Shown: piece after piece, positions 1-60,122 of the stretch | Position numbering within the stretch: position 1 is the stretch's first letter | Layout: each line of letters starts with the position of its first letter | Source: Candidatus Moraniibacteriota bacterium | Lineage (GTDB): Bacteria; Patescibacteriota; Minisyncoccia; Moranbacterales; JAPLXC01 | Direction: 5' to 3' | Assembly: GCA_026396275.1 (NCBI GenBank) | Contig: JAPLXC010000019.1 | Location: 355 to 64,354, forward strand | DNA: 64,000 nucleotides | Position numbers and translations under genes: made by a program | Notes under the pieces: generated by a model | What the model was told of the DNA's origin: nothing | Database searches by the model: none | What the model saw: the letters and a program-made list of their open reading frames with translations, nothing else

Positions 1-1
1 T

Positions 2-502
2 AAAAACGAGTGTCAGGTTGTTTATATTTTGTCTCGAATTAGAAAAATTTTAGAAATTAAAAATCAGAAAGATAAATACGAACTTCTTAATTTTTATTGT
101 AACTGGTCATTGCATGTTAATTTGAAATATAAAAATACAACGCAATTTATATCAAAAATGTTCGATCAATATATTGAATTTACGAAAAGTGAGAAGGATA
201 TTGCTCGCGAAATGAAATCTAATCATGCCGATTTTTTTAAGCTCAATGATTTAAAAAACGAGCTAAGGAAATTTTTTGAAGTCCATGATTTGCCATTAAA
301 CTTAGTAGATAAAAACAAATATTGGATTACTTTTATAAAGTTGCTTCTGGAAATAATTGAAGAATGTCCAGTTATTTGTATTAAAAGTTCAAAGAAAATA
401 GAAAGATTGACCCTGATAAAAAATAAAAAAGGAGATTATTGTTATAAATTTAATTTGATTAATTTAAGGCATAAACCAATCATAAAATTAAAGTTCAAAT
501 AA
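2..502 (+). CDS. Hypothetical protein, probably a C-terminal fragment; the frame is open back to the window edge and the listed start is TTG
   Basis: ORF track 29..502. No in-frame stop between positions 2 and 29. Very AT-rich coding sequence. No recognisable motif. Confidence 0.35.
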   Translation, partial: KNECQVVYILSRIRKILEIKNQKDKYELLNFYCNWSLHVNLKYKNTTQFISKMFDQYIEFTKSEKDIAREMKSNHADFFKLNDLKNELRKFFEVHDLPLNLVDKNKYWITFIKLLLEIIEECPVICIKSSKKIERLTLIKNKKGDYCYKFNLINLRHKPIIKLKFK

Positions 503-605
503 AATAATATCTAAAAAAATTTTTAGGCAGCGTGCCAGCCTTGTTGGCACAAAATCCGGTGGGGGAAAATATCTTTTCTAAAAAAGTTATTGCTAAATAA
601 AATTT

Positions 606-1376
606 ATGGATCCATTATCAATTTTGTCTGCAGTTCCAACTATCTGGGATTTTTTTAGACGATTACTAAAAGCGTTACCTAAGGCGATTACCTCCCATAG
701 TCTTAAAAAGTTTTTTGGTAAGCATTTTTTTGATAATAAAAAAATCTATCTGGTACTTGATACATACAGAGATTCACGACCCAGAACAGACAATCGTTAT
801 TATAAGGATTACCCGAATAGAGGAAAAGGACGACAGCCTCTTATAGGTGGTGATATAATTTATGGAACATTTGCTCCCAAATTCGTATCTTTATTTGAGT
901 CAAAATTTTCTGATTTCCGCAAGGGTCAATTTAATGTTGTGATAGACGAAGAGGTAGACACGGTTATGGATGCTACACTAGTTTGTTATGGGAGTTCAGA
1001 TTCAAATCTTAAAACATTTGATATTGAAAAAGAGTATGGCGGGAAATATTACGAATTCGTTTTTGGGAATAATAGACGGAGAGCTTTTAAAATGAAAGGT
1101 AGAATTTTTGAATTTAAACAAGGTACTCCCGCTAAAGATAGAGCAGTATTGCTAAAGATAAAGAATCCAAACGATAAAGAACATTCCTTAATTGTTTGCG
1201 CTGGACTTTCTGAATGGGGATCTCTTGCGGCTGCATACTATTTAGTTAATAATTGGCGAACGCTTTATAAGGATTACAAACAGAAAAACTTCTGCTTACT
1301 TTTTGAGATTACCTATGGTCAATTCGAAAATGCAAATGTTTTAGAAAGAATTACAGAGGAAGATATTGATAAATGA
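606..1376 (+). CDS. Hypothetical protein of the AT-rich island; the C-terminus has a Rossmann-like beta-strand followed by a Gly loop (HSLIVCAGLSEWGSLAAAYYL)
   Basis: 256-aa ORF. The strand-plus-Gly-loop motif resembles nucleotide-binding or sensor folds (SLOG/DprA/LOG-like), but this is inference only. Low GC relative to neighbours. Confidence 0.45.
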   Translation: MDPLSILSAVPTIWDFFRRLLKALPKAITSHSLKKFFGKHFFDNKKIYLVLDTYRDSRPRTDNRYYKDYPNRGKGRQPLIGGDIIYGTFAPKFVSLFESKFSDFRKGQFNVVIDEEVDTVMDATLVCYGSSDSNLKTFDIEKEYGGKYYEFVFGNNRRRAFKMKGRIFEFKQGTPAKDRAVLLKIKNPNDKEHSLIVCAGLSEWGSLAAAYYLVNNWRTLYKDYKQKNFCLLFEITYGQFENANVLERITEEDIDK

Positions 1377-1378
1377 AA

Positions 1379-1408
1379 TCACTTGAGGACTGTCCTCGCC
1401 TCGGCCAT
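1379..1408. repeat. 30-bp direct repeat copy A (tcacttgaggactgtcctcgcctcggccat) containing the GAGGAC/GTCCTC hairpin
   Basis: 27 of 30 positions match the copy at 2239-2267. Together the two copies bracket ORF 1431..2201. Confidence 0.8.
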
Positions 1409-1430
1409 TTTATAAAAAAATGTTATAAAG

Positions 1431-2201
1431 ATGAAACAACTAGAATTTGAAGGAGAATTAAAATGGATTTCTCCGAACAAAATTATCAAAGAGGGTGGCT
1501 ATAATGTGGATAATGAAGTGGCTAGTTTTTTTATAGGATTCGGGGTTATTTTTAATGACCTAAAAGATCTAATTTTATTTGAACAATTGCTCATTAATAA
1601 TTATCGTAAACCGAAGGAAAAAAAGGCGTCTGTTCACTCAGGAAGTTATAATGGAATAATTGTTCATATAAACAAATTAATAGCCAGTACTATTCATGAA
1701 TTTTTTAAATTTTTGAATAAAAATAAAAAAATTTTAGGCACAAGAGAGTTTAACGAAATATTAAATAAGCTTCCCGCAGAAGAAAAAATAATATGGAATG
1801 GACTTGTTGCTGCCTCTCAGGGTAATTTGTTAAAGGCCTTAAATTTTTTAAAAACTATCGTCCGTATTAGAAGTAATATAGCTTTTCATTATGATCATTC
1901 TGGAAAAATTTTAAAAAGAGGATATAAAAGTCGATTTTTTGGTGAATATAAAGATGATAGTAATAAATGTGCTTATTATTCTATAGGGGATAAAATCGAA
2001 CTTACTAGATTTTTCTTTGCTGACGCGGTTGTTGAAGAATCTCTATTTATCGAAGCAGGAAAGGAAGAGAAAAAGAAGTTTATAGAGGATATGAGCTTGA
2101 TAAAATATCAAGCTCAATTAAGAGAGACTGTTAATGTTGTAACTAAAATTATAAAGCTTTTGTTGAAAAATTTTTTACAATCACGGCGTAACCGTCCGTG
2201 A
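1431..2201 (+). CDS. Hypothetical alpha-helical protein with a HEPN-like Rx5H motif (VRIRSNIAFHYD); candidate RNase effector
   Basis: 256-aa ORF flanked by near-identical 30-bp direct repeats at 1379-1408 and 2239-2267. The Rx4-6H pattern is characteristic of HEPN domains. AT-rich. Confidence 0.45.
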   Translation: MKQLEFEGELKWISPNKIIKEGGYNVDNEVASFFIGFGVIFNDLKDLILFEQLLINNYRKPKEKKASVHSGSYNGIIVHINKLIASTIHEFFKFLNKNKKILGTREFNEILNKLPAEEKIIWNGLVAASQGNLLKALNFLKTIVRIRSNIAFHYDHSGKILKRGYKSRFFGEYKDDSNKCAYYSIGDKIELTRFFFADAVVEESLFIEAGKEEKKKFIEDMSLIKYQAQLRETVNVVTKIIKLLLKNFLQSRRNRP

Positions 2202-2238
2202 TTACGTAATTAATTACCCCGTAAAATCCGCGGCGGAT

Positions 2239-2267
2239 CACTCGAGGACCGTCCTCGCTTCGGCCAT
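2239..2267. repeat. 30-bp direct repeat copy B (tcactcgaggaccgtcctcgcttcggccat)
   Basis: See copy A. Immediately followed by a palindromic element. Confidence 0.8.
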
Positions 2268-2278
2268 CAAATCTAATA

Positions 2279-2304
2279 GTTGCTATGGATTGCGTACGCA
2301 ATTT
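2279..2304. repeat. Palindromic element, truncated copy (gttgctatggattgcgtacgcaattt)
   Basis: Matches the near-perfect 37-nt palindrome at 37642-37678 (GGTTGCTAT-aa-ATTGCGTACGCAAT-cc-ATAGCAACC). Confidence 0.7.
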
Positions 2305-2402
2305 ATAAGAGTCATTAAGTTTTTTATCTACGTAGATACCTATGTAGATCCGAAACTTGGCCGGCCCCGGGAGAGCTGGGTTTTTTTGGTTTCTTTAAGC
2401 CC

Positions 2403-2459
2403 TTGACAAAACGCCTAATTTGACTATAATATTGATGTTTTGAATGGAATTGGTATAAT
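2403..2459 (+). promoter_or_regulatory. Tandem sigma70-like promoters upstream of the RNase P RNA
   Basis: TTGACA at 2403-2408, 16-nt spacer, TATAAT at 2425-2430. A second pair: TTGATG at 2432-2437 and TATAAT at 2454-2459. Confidence 0.5.
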
Positions 2460-2467
2460 AATAGCGT

Positions 2468-2762
2468 GTTCTTTTTAGGTCTAATACTCATCAAGGCAAG
2501 CTGGGCAATTACTCTTCTGCAGGGTTCTGCAGCGGGGAGGAAAGTCCGGACATTCGGTCCCGCTTTGGCGGGACAAGGGTAGCGGGTAACGCCCGTCTAG
2601 AGTAATCTAAGAGGTGCGAGCAGAAACGCCGCGTGGCGAAAGCTTTACGCGGGGACCCCATCCCAAGCTAGGTGGTCCAACTCCGCTATAGGGATAAAAA
2701 GGCGGAGATGAAACGGCTAAATCCTTACCTGAATGCAAGGTCGTACTGCCAATGCTTTGCGT
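2468..2762 (+). ncRNA. rnpB: RNase P RNA (bacterial type A-like, compact); boundaries approximate
   Basis: P4 5' strand GGAGGAAAGTCCGGAC at 2536-2550 preceded by the P3 hairpin CTGCAG-ggtt-CTGCAG. AGGGTAGCGGGTAACGCCCG matches the conserved GGUAACGCC region. P4 3'-strand-like GAAACGGCTAAAT at 2709-2721. The minus-strand ORF 2607..2831 is spurious. Confidence 0.75.
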
Positions 2763-3041
2763 TGGCTTTGTGCCGCTAGAGCTCCGCAGTAATGCGGAGT
2801 CGAGATTAATGATTGCCACCGATGTGTTCACCTTGATGTCACCCCAGCACCTTTTCCGGGTATAAATTTACCTATAATGGAAACTTGTTTCACGGAACGG
2901 CTTCGCCTGAACAGGAAATGATATGAAATTTGTACTTAGAAAAGGTGCGGGGTGCTCAATGTGTTACCGAAATTAAAATTTCGAACACATTGGCACAGAA
3001 TCCGGCTTATGGCTTGTCTTGATAAGTATTGGACTTAATTT

Positions 3042-4454
3042 ATGAAAAAGTCAGAATTATTTTTTAGCGCGTTTCAGGTGCCAGTGGACTTTGCAATGAT
3101 TATTCTGGCGGCAATCACCGCTTTTGCCATCCGCGACATTCCCCAGATTTTGGCGCTCAAACCCAAACTGTATAATTTTCCCTTTGAGAGCTACGTTGAA
3201 ATTGCACTTTTAGTAGCTCCTTTTTTTATTCTTATTTACGCCTTGGAAGGGCTTTATGACATCCGGTCAACCAGGAAAATTTGGAAAGAAATAGTAAAGG
3301 TCTTCGTAGCCACTTCAATCGGCCTGGTCATAATTATTGTTGCCATATTTCTTAAGCGCGAATGGTTTTCTTCGCGTTTTATAATTTTAGCCGGCTGGTT
3401 TTTTATGGTCGTTTATGTCGTGATAGCCAGATTTATTCTCCAAAATATCCAGAAGGTGCTTTTGGTTAAAAAAGGAATTGGCATCCACCGGGTGCTTCTC
3501 ATTGGCCGCAACGGTAAAATTGATGAAATTGGCAGAGTGATAAAGGAAAAGCCAAAGCTGGGTTATAAAATTGTCGGGCAGATTGATACCGGAAGCGTGA
3601 AGGCGGTGAAGCAAATTCGCGGGGCTGAGGGAGTAGATGAAATTATCGTCTGCGATCCGACGCTTACCGATGCCGAGCAGGAAAAATTGGTTGATTATTG
3701 CGCGATCAATAACGTTTCCTATAAATTTATTCCCACTACTCTCCAGACATCTCAGCTGGAAATCGGGATGCTGGACGGCGAGCCCATTATTGAGGTTCAG
3801 CATACTCCTTTGGAAGGGTGGGGAAGGATACTCAAAAGAATCTTTGACATTGCGGGATCAGCCGCACTGATTATTATTTTCTCTCCGGTTATGATTGTTA
3901 CGGCCATAATTATTTGGCTTGAGGGAGAGGGGCCGATTATTTATAAGAACGAACGGATAGGAAACGACGGGAAAAAATTTTACGCCTGCAAATTCCGCTA
4001 TATGAAATGGCGTTACAGCATCCATCGTGACAATCCGAATTTAAAAGAAGCGCTTGAATACGAACAAGAACTAATCAGGGAACGGAGCGTCCGCCAGGGA
4101 CCCCTTTATAAAATCAAAAACGACCCTCGCAAGACCACTTTTGGAAAATTTATTGAAAAGTATTCTATTGACGAACTCCCGCAATTTTTTAATGTATTAA
4201 AAGGCGACATGAGCTTGGTTGGGCCGCGCCCCCATCAGGAAAGGGAAGTGGAAAAATACCGCGAATATCACCGCCGGCTGCTCACCATCAAACCGGGGAT
4301 AACCGGCATGGCGCAAGTGGCGGGCCGGTCCGATCTTGATTTCGAGGACGAATATAAAATGGATGTCTATTACATTGAAAACTGGTCGCTGTGGCTGGAT
4401 ATCCAGCTTTGCCTGAAAACCGTCGGAGTGATTTTCAGAAGGAGGAAAAATTGA
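3042..4454 (+). CDS. Polyprenyl glycosylphosphotransferase (bacterial sugar transferase, WbaP/EPS family)
   Basis: N-terminal TM segments. C-terminal bac_transf motifs DELPQFFNVLKGDMSLVGPRP and KPGITGMAQV. Confidence 0.85.
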   Translation: MKKSELFFSAFQVPVDFAMIILAAITAFAIRDIPQILALKPKLYNFPFESYVEIALLVAPFFILIYALEGLYDIRSTRKIWKEIVKVFVATSIGLVIIIVAIFLKREWFSSRFIILAGWFFMVVYVVIARFILQNIQKVLLVKKGIGIHRVLLIGRNGKIDEIGRVIKEKPKLGYKIVGQIDTGSVKAVKQIRGAEGVDEIIVCDPTLTDAEQEKLVDYCAINNVSYKFIPTTLQTSQLEIGMLDGEPIIEVQHTPLEGWGRILKRIFDIAGSAALIIIFSPVMIVTAIIIWLEGEGPIIYKNERIGNDGKKFYACKFRYMKWRYSIHRDNPNLKEALEYEQELIRERSVRQGPLYKIKNDPRKTTFGKFIEKYSIDELPQFFNVLKGDMSLVGPRPHQEREVEKYREYHRRLLTIKPGITGMAQVAGRSDLDFEDEYKMDVYYIENWSLWLDIQLCLKTVGVIFRRRKN

Positions 4455-4456
4455 AG

Positions 4457-4485
4457 TTGACAATTTTCAAAAGATTAGTTATAAT
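4457..4485 (+). promoter_or_regulatory. Sigma70-like promoter for the khpA-trmD unit
   Basis: TTGACA at 4457-4462, 17-nt spacer, TATAAT at 4480-4485. A leader hairpin AAGGTT-tagtca-AACCTT lies at about 4512-4530. Confidence 0.5.
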
Positions 4486-4569
4486 AGGCGATGAGAGATT
4501 GCGAAAAGGAAGGTTTAGTCAACCTTTCGGTCATTCCACTCTCCGTAATCAGTAATAATCAGTACTAAT

Positions 4570-4899
4570 ATGGCGAAAGAGAGCTATACTGATCAGGAAT
4601 TCCTTGAGTACACCGTGAAGTTGCTCGTGGACACTCCTGACGCAGTAAAAGTCGAAAGAAAGATTGATGAAATGGGAGTACTCATCACACTCCAGGTCGA
4701 TCCCAAGGACATGGGTATGGTCATCGGTCGAGAAGGTGCGACCGCCAAGGCCCTGCGAACAATCCTCCGAGTTATCGGCGCAAGAAACAATGCCCGTGTT
4801 AACCTCAAGATCAATGAGCCGGAAGGATCCGAGCGACCTAATCGCAGTCAAGAAGGAAGAAAAAGCATAGAAGATGTGGTCGGAGACATAAAGATTTAA
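4570..4899 (+). CDS. khpA: KH-domain RNA-binding protein KhpA (YlqC/UPF0109)
   Basis: GMVIGREGATAKALRTILRV KH motif. Conserved position upstream of trmD. Confidence 0.8.
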   Translation: MAKESYTDQEFLEYTVKLLVDTPDAVKVERKIDEMGVLITLQVDPKDMGMVIGREGATAKALRTILRVIGARNNARVNLKINEPEGSERPNRSQEGRKSIEDVVGDIKI

Positions 4900-4981
4900 A
4901 ATGCTTTGAATCATTTTCTTTTAGCAAAAAAGCCACAACCGTGGCTTTTTTGTTTCGGGAAAGCGTGATATTATTAGGAAT

Positions 4982-5662
4982 ATGAAAGTAAAATTTCACA
5001 TAATTACCCTGTTTCCTCAAATGTTTGAAGGGTATTTTTCCCATTCGATTTTGAAAAAAGCCGAGAAAAAAGGCCTTATTGACGTTAAGGTTTATAACCT
5101 GCGCGATTACACTGCCGACAAACACCGCACAGCCGACGATACGCCGTACGGCGGGGGAGCCGGGATGGTGTTGAAAATTGAACCGATTTATAGATGCGTG
5201 CAAGATTTAAAATCAAAAATCAAAAATCAAAAATCAAAATTAAGGATAGCTTTGTTCTCTGCTAAGGGAAAGAAATATACACAAAAGGAAGCTGAAAGAT
5301 TGGTAAAGTATAATGACCTAATACTGATTTGCGGCAGGTATGAAGGAGTAGATGAGCGGGTAGCCAAATACATTGCTGATGAGGAAATTTCAATTGGCGA
5401 TTATGTATTGACTGGAGGAGAAATCCCAGCGATGATTTTGGTTGATTCAATAGCCCGCCTAATACCCGGGGTCTTAAGCAATACAGAAAGCTTGAAAAGC
5501 GAGTCGCACAGTAACGAGGGATACCTGGAATATCCACAATACACCAAGCCCGAAAATTTTCGCGGCTGGAAGGTGCCGAAAATTTTGCTAAGCGGAAATC
5601 ATAAGAGGATCGAGGAATGGAGAATTAAAAGTTCAAAAATTAAAATTCAAAAATCAAAATGA
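4982..5662 (+). CDS. trmD: tRNA (guanine37-N1)-methyltransferase TrmD, carrying in-frame heptamer-repeat insertions
   Basis: [27 protein letters not shown] and [12 protein letters not shown] motifs. The [10 protein letters not shown] insert is encoded by (AAAATCA)n. Confidence 0.9.
5207..5241. repeat. (AAAATCA)n heptanucleotide microsatellite, about 4.5 units, in frame inside trmD
   Basis: Read directly from the sequence. Encodes [10 protein letters not shown]. Confidence 0.9.
5628..5660. repeat. Degenerate AAAATCA/AAAATTA repeats at the trmD 3' end, encoding [11 protein letters not shown]
   Basis: Read directly. An inverted copy (cattttgatatttacattttg) lies downstream at about 5700-5740. 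Confidence 0.7.
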
Positions 5663-18187: not shown

Positions 18188-18196
18188 AGTGTAGTT

Positions 18197-18664
18197 ATGA
18201 AGATTATCCAAACAGTTGCAATAATCCAAAAAGGAGATGAAATTCTTCTCGGCATGAAAAAGCGCGGTTTTGGAGCTGGAAGATGGAATGGTTTTGGCGG
18301 GAAATTAAAAGAAAATGAAAATGTAATTCAAGCAGCGCAAAGGGAGCTTAAAGAGGAAACCGGGATTGATACAGAAAATTTAATTGAAATGGGCATTATT
18401 GAATTTGAATTTAAGAGGAATCCTGATATCCTTGAAGTTCATTTTTTAAAAGGAACAGATTTTTCCGGAGCGCTGGTAGAAACAGAAGAAATGAAACCCG
18501 CTTGGTTTAAAATTAATGAAATCCCCTACGACTCAATGTGGCCGGATGATAAATTCTGGCTGCCGCTGTTTCTGGAAGGAAAAAAATTTTGCGGTAAATT
18601 CTTATTTGATAATTATAATAAAATCATTAAACATAAACTTGAGATCGTAGATAAGTTACAATAG
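18197..18664 (+). CDS. NUDIX hydrolase (MutT-like)
   Basis: Nudix box GGKLKENENVIQAAQRELKEETGI. Confidence 0.8.
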   Translation: MKIIQTVAIIQKGDEILLGMKKRGFGAGRWNGFGGKLKENENVIQAAQRELKEETGIDTENLIEMGIIEFEFKRNPDILEVHFLKGTDFSGALVETEEMKPAWFKINEIPYDSMWPDDKFWLPLFLEGKKFCGKFLFDNYNKIIKHKLEIVDKLQ

Positions 18665-58597: not shown

Positions 58598-58987
58598 ATG
58601 AAACAAGATTCCATATTGACATTGCATAGATATTATATTTGGGCGACAACAATGAAGTTTCACTTTGAGGAAGAATTAAAAAAACATAATATATCTAAAA
58701 ATAAAGATATTACTATAGAGCAAATGATGTATATGTCGATTTGGTATGGATTATTATATGTTGTAGCTGAAGGATGGAAAAATCTAAAACTGCACGATAA
58801 GGTTATTGATTCGTTGCTTCAATCTAAAAATATTAATTTACTTAAAAGATATAGAAACGGAGTATTCCATTTTAATAAAAAATATTATAATGATAAATAC
58901 CTAGATTTTTGCAAAGAAAAATCATCTGCAGATTGGATTAGAAAATTAAACTTAGAGCTCGGAAAGTATTTTTTTGGAATATTTTAA
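58598..58987 (+). CDS. Hypothetical protein (AT-rich islet)
   Basis: 129-aa ORF with about 28% GC. Confidence 0.4.
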   Translation: MKQDSILTLHRYYIWATTMKFHFEEELKKHNISKNKDITIEQMMYMSIWYGLLYVVAEGWKNLKLHDKVIDSLLQSKNINLLKRYRNGVFHFNKKYYNDKYLDFCKEKSSADWIRKLNLELGKYFFGIF

Positions 58988-59010
58988 AAAATAATTTTTA
59001 AATTAAAAAT

Positions 59011-59316
59011 ATGGAAAACGAAACAATCAAAGAAAATAAATCAGCAAAATTAGACAAAATAATGAAGCTAAGTATAATTTTTGGAGTGTTGATAGTAGCA
59101 TTGTCAATTGCTTATTATCTGGTAGTTTTTTTGCCCCTTAAAAATAAAGAGCAGTGGAAGCAAGAAGAAGAAAAACAGAAAATGACGCAAGAGTGTTCAA
59201 ACAAGACACTGGATGATATCAGAAGATGGGCAGAAGGAAGACAAGTTTCCGATGATAATTCAATCAAACAATATAATTTCTTTTTTGAAAAATGTTTAAA
59301 AGAAAAAGGATTATAA
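59011..59316 (+). CDS. Hypothetical single-TM protein (AT-rich islet)
   Basis: 101-aa ORF with one TM helix. Confidence 0.4.
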   Translation: MENETIKENKSAKLDKIMKLSIIFGVLIVALSIAYYLVVFLPLKNKEQWKQEEEKQKMTQECSNKTLDDIRRWAEGRQVSDDNSIKQYNFFFEKCLKEKGL

Positions 59317-59600
59317 AAATAATTTCACAAACCAACCCTCCGACCGGGGCAGTAAAACAAAACAGCTTGTAAAATTAGTGATAATTAGAAATACTGACGA
59401 TTTACCATATTTGCATATATAATAAAAAGTGTTGCTTGACCTGTTCAGTAACTTGTTACTTAACAATGTAAGTAATTTCCTCCAAAGGCGGACAAGAATT
59501 ACGTAATTCTAAAATCAGCTTTTAAGCTTGACAAAAGTCCGATAATGAAATAGGATAAACAGTTGTAGTTGAGATGTTTTTTAAAAAATAAAAGCCTGAA

Positions 59601-59852
59601 TTGGCAAAAGGAAAAGGAGGAAAAATGAGTGGAAAAATAATAACAAAGAATATGAAGATCGGAGAAATAATTGCCTTCAAAGATGAGAGAGCGAAAAAAA
59701 TTATTGAAGATTATTTCTTTGATTTCAAAAATCTCCCACTCTATGCTAAGAAGATTACTCTTGAAGAAGCTGCCCGCAAGAGCGGCAAGGATTACAAAAT
59801 CTTAGCTGTTTTACGGGCAATCAATAATTTGCCCGAGAAAAAGAAGAAATGA
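59601..59852 (+). CDS. Hypothetical small protein (DUF1858-like pattern; low confidence)
   Basis: IITKNMKIGEIIAFKDERAKKIIEDYF. RBS GGAAAAGGAGG. Confidence 0.35.
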   Translation: MAKGKGGKMSGKIITKNMKIGEIIAFKDERAKKIIEDYFFDFKNLPLYAKKITLEEAARKSGKDYKILAVLRAINNLPEKKKK

Positions 59853-60122
59853 TTTTTCTTGGGAGATATTACAGGCGGAAAAAAATCTGCCTGTATTTTT
59901 TACTGCATTATTCCGGCATACTATAATGTTACTACTACATAACCTTATATGGTAGTGATGAATTTATGAACCAATAAGCGACCGGAAATTTTGGAATAAT
60001 TCGGTGACCGAAATCAGTCACCCACTTTTATTTTCTAAGGTCGTAATTTTTGACAAAATGAGCTTATTTGTTAATCTGGATATGCTTTTTAACAACATGT
60101 CACATATTAGAGGAGGATAAAA

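Follow-up and report, generated by a model that had tools for sequence, protein, structure and literature searches.

A predicted HEPN-superfamily protein among three unannotated gene families in an AT-rich islet of a Candidatus Moranbacteria genome

Bacteria of the Candidate Phyla Radiation (CPR; Patescibacteria) live with very small genomes, in which few defence systems have been recognised, and defence or toxin genes found in them are informative on how these episymbionts handle phages and stress. Here, we describe an AT-rich islet of three open reading frames (ORF1, ORF2, and ORF3) located at the beginning of a 64,000-nucleotide stretch of a Candidatus Moranbacteria genome (contig JAPLXC010000019.1, hereafter the window), upstream of the RNase P RNA gene (rnpB). 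The third of these genes, ORF3, encodes a predicted protein of the HEPN superfamily, and it is the main subject of the analysis.

The ORF3 family and its closest described relatives

AbiD/F, AbiU2, AbiV, ApeA, and the C-terminal domain of PrrC/RloC have been described as HEPN defence proteins (Anantharaman et al. 2013, Table 1; PMC3710099). ORF3 resembles them in that they are single-gene HEPN effectors of defence islands, often located beside restriction-modification (RM) operons; coherently, in several loci the ORF3 homologs adjoin type I and IIG RM genes. On the other hand, the Pfam and PADLOC models of these proteins match neither ORF3 nor its relatives, and ORF3 carries no fused domain, be it an ABC ATPase or another. 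The HEPN family of integron cassettes (Vpc_cass2, PDB 3jrt) is also among the closest known to ORF3 (Anantharaman et al. 2013, PMC3710099; Sureshan et al. 2013, PMC3548836). The HEPN-MNT type II/VII toxins (SO_3166, PDB 5yep; 7ae2; 8xdj) are instead shorter (~130–140 aa vs 256 aa of ORF3) and always paired with an AMPylating MNT nucleotidyltransferase antitoxin, whereas ORF3 has no MNT neighbour in the window and the adjacent ORF2 does not have a nucleotidyltransferase fold.

ORF3 has 64 homologs in the database, of uniform length (~250 aa), and its relatives were found in 72 species-level genomes. About half of these are Patescibacteria, while the other hosts (24–35% identity) belong to Acidobacteriota, Myxococcota, Gemmatimonadota, Bacteroidota, Ignavibacteriales, Elusimicrobia, Nitrospira, Verrucomicrobiota, and Bdellovibrio. 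An earlier note on this DNA had pointed out in ORF3 an R-x5-H motif similar to that of HEPN proteins (RIRSNIAFH). The motif spans residues 145–153 (R147, codon 1869–1871; H153, codon 1887–1889) and turned out to be the invariant one of the family: R147 and H153 are invariant across 51 homologs and, in a set of 72 sequences from CPR and non-CPR phyla with identity down to ~25%, R147 is present in 72/72, H153, E90, D43, R193, and D198 each in 71/72, and N42 in 70/72. S, N, or H follows R147 in 66/72 sequences, and the core motif of the family can be written as (I/V)R(S/N/H)xxx(F/Y)HY. The candidate active site includes E90, R147, S148, and H153, plus N42-D43 and T192-R193-F194...D198.

The AlphaFold model of ORF3 is confident and all helical, with a predicted local distance difference test (pLDDT) value of 89 and a predicted template modelling (pTM) score of 0.86. 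Residues R147–F152 close the helix 134–151, H153 lies in the loop 152–157, and E90 in the helix 68–97. In HEPN domains, the Rx4-6H motif covers the C-terminal part of helix 3 and the beginning of the loop after it; a polar residue follows the arginine, and helix 2 contributes a conserved acidic residue (Anantharaman et al. 2013, PMC3710099). The model of ORF3 shows an all-alpha core of four up-down helices, a core that in HEPN domains often has an insertion separating the second helix from the third. The motif, in the form R147-x5-H153, is located where a long helix terminates (134–151, taken as helix 3 by topology); the polar residue 148 and the acidic E90 in helix 2 are also in place. On the basis of the model, R147, H153, and E90 would correspond to the known HEPN active site. 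Altogether, ORF3 probably belongs to the HEPN superfamily, and it is credible that it represents an uncurated family inside this well-known superfamily. The family would be a well-conserved HEPN branch present in at least nine phyla and unrecognised by Pfam, NCBIfam, PADLOC, and PHROGs.

By analogy with other HEPN proteins, ORF3 could work as a stand-alone ~250-aa protein, most likely dimerising, that cleaves RNA in a metal-independent manner, with H153 as general base and R147, S/N148, and E90 assisting. RNA cleavage would then lead to growth arrest, with ORF3 acting as a toxin or as an abortive-infection effector.

We investigated the genomic context of the family by counting the protein domains in 149 genes located around the ORF3 homologs and by clustering the neighbours. 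No partner was dominant, and housekeeping genes were present among the neighbours. The recurrent families were Peptidase_S24/LexA (4 genes), phage integrase (3), type I specificity subunit, AIPR, defence-type reverse transcriptases, PD-(D/E)XK, and ResIII (2 each); no nucleotidyltransferase family was among the 25 most frequent. By clustering, recurrence near the ORF3 homologs was limited to LexA-like S24 proteins, in 8 loci, and to RM genes, in ~6 loci. A LexA-like repressor (LexA_DNA_bind + Peptidase_S24) lies upstream of the ORF3 homolog, at most three genes away, in about 8 of ~60 loci (~13%) and, in three of the eight, it is immediately upstream on the same strand, with one gap of only 4 bp. 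This suggests the presence, in those genomes, of a two-gene SOS-inducible HEPN module, in which the expression of the putative RNase toxin would probably be induced by DNA damage. The terms “LexA” and “S24” are absent from the HEPN survey of Anantharaman et al. 2013 (PMC3710099), and neither a LexA-linked nor a CPR HEPN family was described in the literature that we searched. One of the LexA-linked neighbourhoods also holds an impB/mucB polymerase. Elsewhere, a SAM riboswitch is located directly downstream of an ORF3 homolog (L017 6183–6289) and a DUF3800-IX RNA near another one (L018 7065–7133); both are probably incidental.

A probably acquired islet and its three gene families

The earlier note had described positions 1–2400 as much richer in AT than the rest of the window and possibly acquired horizontally, and both the windowed GC content and the GC content at third codon positions (GC3) agree with it. 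The GC content is 29.3% at positions 1–1000 and 29.9% at positions 1001–2000, while nearly all the other 1-kb bins are at 36–49%; the window at large has ~42% GC vs 29–30% for positions 1–2200. Among the 2.2-kb segments across the 64 kb (mean GC 0.415, standard deviation 0.026), the one starting at position 1 has the lowest value of all (0.299), ~4.5 standard deviations below the mean. Similarly, GC3 is 0.25 in ORF1, 0.24 in ORF2, and 0.22 in ORF3, vs 0.42 ± 0.07 in 45 long ORFs. A uniform GC content, which would have spoken against an island, was thus not found, and the rise in GC at ~2200 coincides with the stop codon of ORF3. Positions 1–2200 are a compositionally foreign segment, and the AT-rich stretch looks horizontally acquired. 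Regarding a viral origin, genes of the ORF2 and ORF3 families were absent from the IMG/VR contigs searched.

The three ORFs are all on the + strand, separated by gaps of 103 nt (ORF1–ORF2) and 54 nt (ORF2–ORF3), and they end ~290 nt 5' of rnpB. A GC-rich hairpin element follows each of them on the 3' side, and the sole terminator-like site detected in the islet lies 3' of ORF3. The earlier note had counted three ORFs, the first cut by the window edge: three are indeed present, but ORF1 is nearly complete, the database protein being of 184 aa and only its first 18 residues falling outside the window. The left end of the island lies outside the window as well. All three genes are annotated as hypothetical, and none of the three proteins could be assigned to a nameable family, as already remarked from the sequence, with zero matches in Pfam, PADLOC, NCBIfam, and PHROGs. 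ORF1 homologs are located directly downstream of a DNA methyltransferase gene (4–55 nt) in three out of three independent contexts. Since they always follow such a gene, the locus probably continues upstream, which the note had supposed, and a methyltransferase gene is predicted in the ~1.4 kb by which the contig precedes the window.

To assess whether the three genes travel together, we considered a sample of 154 loci with flanks up to 6 kb (78 of the ORF3 family, 69 of the ORF2 family, and 7 of the ORF1 family). In none of the 154 loci were two of the three families found together, and the neighbours also differ around the nearest relatives of each gene: an S-adenosylmethionine (SAM) methyltransferase comes after the closest ORF1 relative (72% identity), an SDH/ClpP-like protease after the closest ORF2 relative (61%), and the two nearest ORF3 relatives (61% and 57%) lie one by a dCMP deaminase and the other by a Schlafen-like helicase and MazG. 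The components are therefore not conserved as a neighbourhood across genomes, and the paired or multi-gene system proposed in the earlier note did not hold up. A HEPN gene beside an alpha/beta gene in an AT-rich patch was here not evidence of a system, a negative result of relevance to genome scanning; the pairing occurs in this locus only.

Furthermore, ORF3 is bracketed exactly by a GC-rich 31-nt direct repeat, whose two copies are identical at 28/31 positions and are the only ones in the 64 kb; zero such matches are expected in shuffled sequences. No copy was found in any of the 154 related loci, nor a comparable bracket around the ORF3 homologs in 68 other loci of the family. The bracket suggests that ORF3 was inserted beside ORF2 as a separate event. 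The repeat was also considered as a family-wide cassette recombination site, and this was rejected: the bracket is a local feature, unique to the locus in the window. The repeat might stem from a target duplication, or it might be either a site of recombination or a 3' element that is shared. The short GC hairpin that it holds is thermodynamically not unusual.

On these grounds, we favour with moderate confidence a reading in which the islet is an acquired, variable or defence-type mosaic of three independently mobile genes, with ORF3 as a stand-alone candidate HEPN toxin or abortive-infection RNase. In favour of this reading are the foreign composition, the sporadic, multi-phylum distribution of the families, in variable neighbourhoods with RM genes, integrases, AIPR, defence-type reverse transcriptases, and S24/LexA, the lack of conserved partners, the link of ORF1 to RM genes, the fusions and contexts of ORF2, and a transcription separate from that of rnpB. 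Positions 1 to ~2400 would represent the right-hand end of a horizontally acquired islet of Candidatus Moranbacteria, and ORF1 and ORF2 were probably carried in this variable region as separate cargo. The locus offers three unannotated families with good leads, rather than a new principle or a demonstrated system.

Several points weigh against this mosaic reading. ORF3, 10 distant relatives, and the family consensus have no match in Pfam, NCBIfam, PADLOC, and PHROGs; just 4 of 51 members match PF18735 (HEPN_RiboL-PSP), with E ≥ 0.006, far from significant, and no significant profile match to an established HEPN family was obtained. The Foldseek search of ORF3 against the PDB gave no significant match, with 3jrt outside the top 50, and the fold assignment depends on one method applied to a predicted structure. 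The defence-type context of the ORF3 homologs is a qualitative observation, and many of the neighbours are housekeeping genes. The locus in the window has no LexA, MNT, or evident antitoxin or immunity partner that would restrain the putative RNase. The methyltransferase gene upstream is itself a prediction. Finally, the largest sampled ORF2 clade lies in an operon that does not look like a defence one: in soil metagenome loci (L083–L144, ~55% GC), the ORF2 homolog is directly followed by an amino-acid permease/Usp gene in 48/62 cases and preceded by a DUF4118-ANTAR regulator in 29 loci, a synteny that hints at a role tied to transporter or stress rather than defence.

Among the alternatives, the one that survives best is that ORF3 is a non-catalytic helical protein, either a regulatory or nucleic-acid-binding HEPN-like protein or another four-helix bundle, with R, H, and E used for binding and the island having no toxin or defence role. 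The missing profile matches listed above sit comfortably with it, and the near-invariant R147, H153, and E90, placed as in HEPN domains, fit a catalytic protein better; we consider it rather unlikely. The profile search of ORF3 against PDB sequences also returned a marginal match to NifU (E 2.9e-4), covering the non-catalytic residues 47–139, which was judged compositional or spurious.

ORF1, ORF2, and the question of a joint system

The ORF1 family includes ~85 homologs of two lengths (~160 and ~180 aa), with invariant residues K9, W53, H56, and F109 and the motif FYCNWxLH. Considering its position after methyltransferase genes in all three contexts, ORF1 could be a type II restriction endonuclease with its methyltransferase just upstream, and ORF2 and ORF3 unrelated cargo. 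Nevertheless, the methyltransferases found beside it come from three families unrelated to each other (N6_N4_Mtase, type I HsdM/S fusion, and EcoRI_methylase) and not from one specificity family, one of the contexts already has its own HsdR nuclease, and the invariant residues make no PD-(D/E)XK, HNH, or GIY-YIG motif, nor was a PLD one found. Moreover, ORF1 has no match in Pfam or PADLOC, and none in the profile search against PDB sequences. An endonuclease is thus improbable. The ORF1 family travels with DNA METHYLTRANSFERASES, and an accessory gene of RM modules fits better than a dedicated restriction enzyme.

One ORF1 neighbourhood holds a further gene of interest. In L147 (6551–7276, + strand), right after the ORF1 homolog, a 241-aa protein carries DYRNHRLGH (R-x5-H); the gene comes after a type I RM operon and is followed by a serine recombinase, has no Pfam match, and falls outside the ORF3 family. 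Judging from its motif, it may be another HEPN-like protein travelling with ORF1-type genes.

For ORF2, 16 close homologs and, by an exhaustive profile search, 404 representative clusters were found. The invariant blocks are TLxCxGxSDxNxKTFDIE and CAGLSEWGSLAAxYYL. The C-terminal strand plus Gly-loop motif that the earlier note had reported in this 256-aa protein (LIVCAGLSEWGSLAAAYYL, residues 195–213) is located as claimed, and its CAGLSEWG-LAA is invariant in the 16 homologs. In the model (pLDDT 75.7, moderate), an N-terminal helix (3–37) precedes an alpha/beta domain. Two strand-Gly/Ser-loop-helix units are conserved in this domain, TLxCxGxSDxNxKT and CAGLSEWGSLAA. The fold resembles non-catalytic domains of carbohydrate enzymes or S-layer anchoring domains. 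The note had gone further, proposing a Rossmann-like nucleotide binder, and this part had to be abandoned: neither a Rossmann NTP-binding or P-loop domain (an alpha/beta/alpha fold with a Gly-rich loop, matching NTP, NAD, or FAD binders) nor a nucleotidyltransferase fold was recognised, and the profile search against PDB sequences gave no match.

More informative are the fusions of the ORF2 domain. It is C-terminal to AAA_35, a STAND-like ATPase, in P0176 and to EAD11 in P0230; in P0231 it follows a pseudopilin and a transmembrane segment, and in several proteins N-terminal transmembrane segments come directly before it. Most members are stand-alone or membrane-anchored. In the framework of Kaur et al. 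2020 (PMC7159879), effector or signalling domains fill the positions coupled to EAD or STAND modules. The ORF2-type domain shares the C-terminal position of such effectors, and this is the closest frame for ORF2, although ORF2 itself has no EAD or NTPase, none is encoded nearby, and no Pfam model describes it. Because the domain is elsewhere membrane-tethered or fused to a STAND-like ATPase or EAD11, ORF2 could work in conflict systems as an effector or a sensor. For these two unannotated families, therefore, the leads come by association: with methyltransferase genes for ORF1, with STAND/EAD modules and membrane anchors for ORF2.

The weakest alternative is that ORF2 and ORF3, and possibly ORF1, form one lineage-specific defence or toxin system, with ORF2 as sensor or neutraliser and ORF3 as HEPN RNase effector. 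It would account for the common strand, the short gaps, the shared extreme AT-richness, the single terminator-like site after ORF3, and the fusions of the ORF2 domain typical of conflict-system modules, and the two loop units of ORF2 could bind a phosphate-containing ligand; but with zero co-occurrence in 154 loci, other neighbours around all the closest relatives, a repeat bracket suggesting a separate arrival of ORF3, and no nucleotidyltransferase or Rossmann NTP-binding fold in ORF2, we regard it as very doubtful.

A bolder extension of the mosaic reading can be formulated. ORF3 would belong to a widespread group of stand-alone HEPN ribonucleases with an extended residue constellation (N-D / E / R-x5-H / T-R-F...D), acting as single-gene abortive-infection or SOS-triggered suicide effector, and it would sit in a repeat-bracketed cassette beside two conflict modules (an RM-riding accessory gene and a STAND/EAD effector or sensor domain), perhaps cooperating locally. 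In this complete form it is speculative, and we think it unlikely to be right.

Features of the islet and the RNase P RNA gene

The coordinates of the features are reported in Table 1. In the contig of the closest ORF1 relative (L009), ORF1 is followed by a hairpin of other sequence and then by the same motif, CCGGCGGGGGAA.

Table 1. Features of the islet and of related loci (positions refer to the window unless a locus is named)
Feature	Position or locus	Strand	Details
ORF1	2/29-502	+	C-terminal 166 of 184 aa; NT136_03930; runs off window edge
GC-rich hairpin and motif after ORF1	530-570	+	GUGCCAGCC UUG UUGGCAC plus CCGGTGGGGGAA; fold z = -1.8
ORF2	606-1376	+	256 aa; NT136_03935
31-nt direct repeat, copy 1	1378-1408	+	ATCACTTGAGGACTGTCCTCGCCTCGGCCAT; 2 nt 3' of ORF2 stop codon; holds short GC hairpin
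ORF3	1431-2201	+	256 aa; NT136_03940; predicted HEPN-superfamily protein
31-nt direct repeat, copy 2	2237-2267	+	36 nt 3' of ORF3 stop codon
Terminator-like GC hairpin then T-run	2366-2389	+	likely end of island transcript
Sigma-70-type promoter	2403-2430	+	TTGACA-16-TATAAT, 12/12; ~60 nt upstream of rnpB
RNase P RNA gene, bacterial class A	2492-3021	+	Rfam core 2493-2878; P4 and P1 read directly
ORF1 context 1	L009, L010		N6_N4_Mtase upstream
ORF1 context 2	L147-L149		type I HsdR and HsdM/S fusion, 4-bp gap
ORF1 context 3	L150, L151		EcoRI_methylase upstream, RhuM gene after
LexA-linked ORF3-family loci	L011 2401-3147; L002 5430-5996		also L003 and 5 others

A 16-nt repeat, TTGGCACArAATCCGG, occurs at 544–559 and 2990–3005, and it was evaluated as island boundary or attachment (att) site. 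The candidate was rejected, as copy 2 corresponds to the 3' strand of P4 of the RNase P RNA and copy 1 overlaps the motif conserved after ORF1 in a relative without ORF2 and ORF3. The possibility that rnpB served as att site was discarded too: the sole rnpB-like repeat (544–559) is on the wrong side of the gene, upstream of it. No integrase was found within positions 1–5000.

The earlier note had placed the islet just upstream of the RNase P RNA gene, and a full-length match to the bacterial class A model was obtained there on the + strand (83.7 bits, E = 1.2e-25). The score is below the Rfam gathering one (83.7 vs 100 bits), and a second, fragmentary match covers 2936–3025. By direct reading, ACAGAATCCGGCTTA at 2995–3009 agrees with 14/15 positions of the P4 3' strand of the model, while CAAGGCAAGC (2492–2501) can pair with GCTTGTCTTG (3012–3021) to form a 10-bp P1 helix. 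As read from the sequence, the gene probably spans ~2492–3021 (~530 nt) and includes an insertion of ~130–170 nt, which would explain the sub-threshold score. The apparent insertion consists of two extra hairpins (~2843–2952 and ~2958–2993) between the P2 3' and P4 3' strands. Pipelines relying on the Rfam gathering score would miss this gene. In 15 related loci, no RNase P RNA was found at the gathering score, a weak test considering that the rnpB of the window is itself below the cutoff.

Since rnpB has its own promoter and a terminator-like site lies between it and ORF3, it is a neighbour of the island and not part of it, with no functional link. The 12/12 match of this promoter to the sigma-70 consensus is unusually perfect for a CPR genome.

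Two other low-GC spots of the window are worth reporting. An ORF of 158 aa at 18188–18661 (+) has 34.8% GC and GC3 0.30, low with respect to the surroundings. A second AT-rich patch (~58.6–59.9 kb; the bin 59001–60000 has 31.5% GC) contains, at 58598–58987 (+), an ORF of 129 aa with RYRNGVFH (R-x4-H, with Asn after the Arg) and no match among PDB sequences; on the strength of this motif, the window may hold here another HEPN-like gene, of minimal size.

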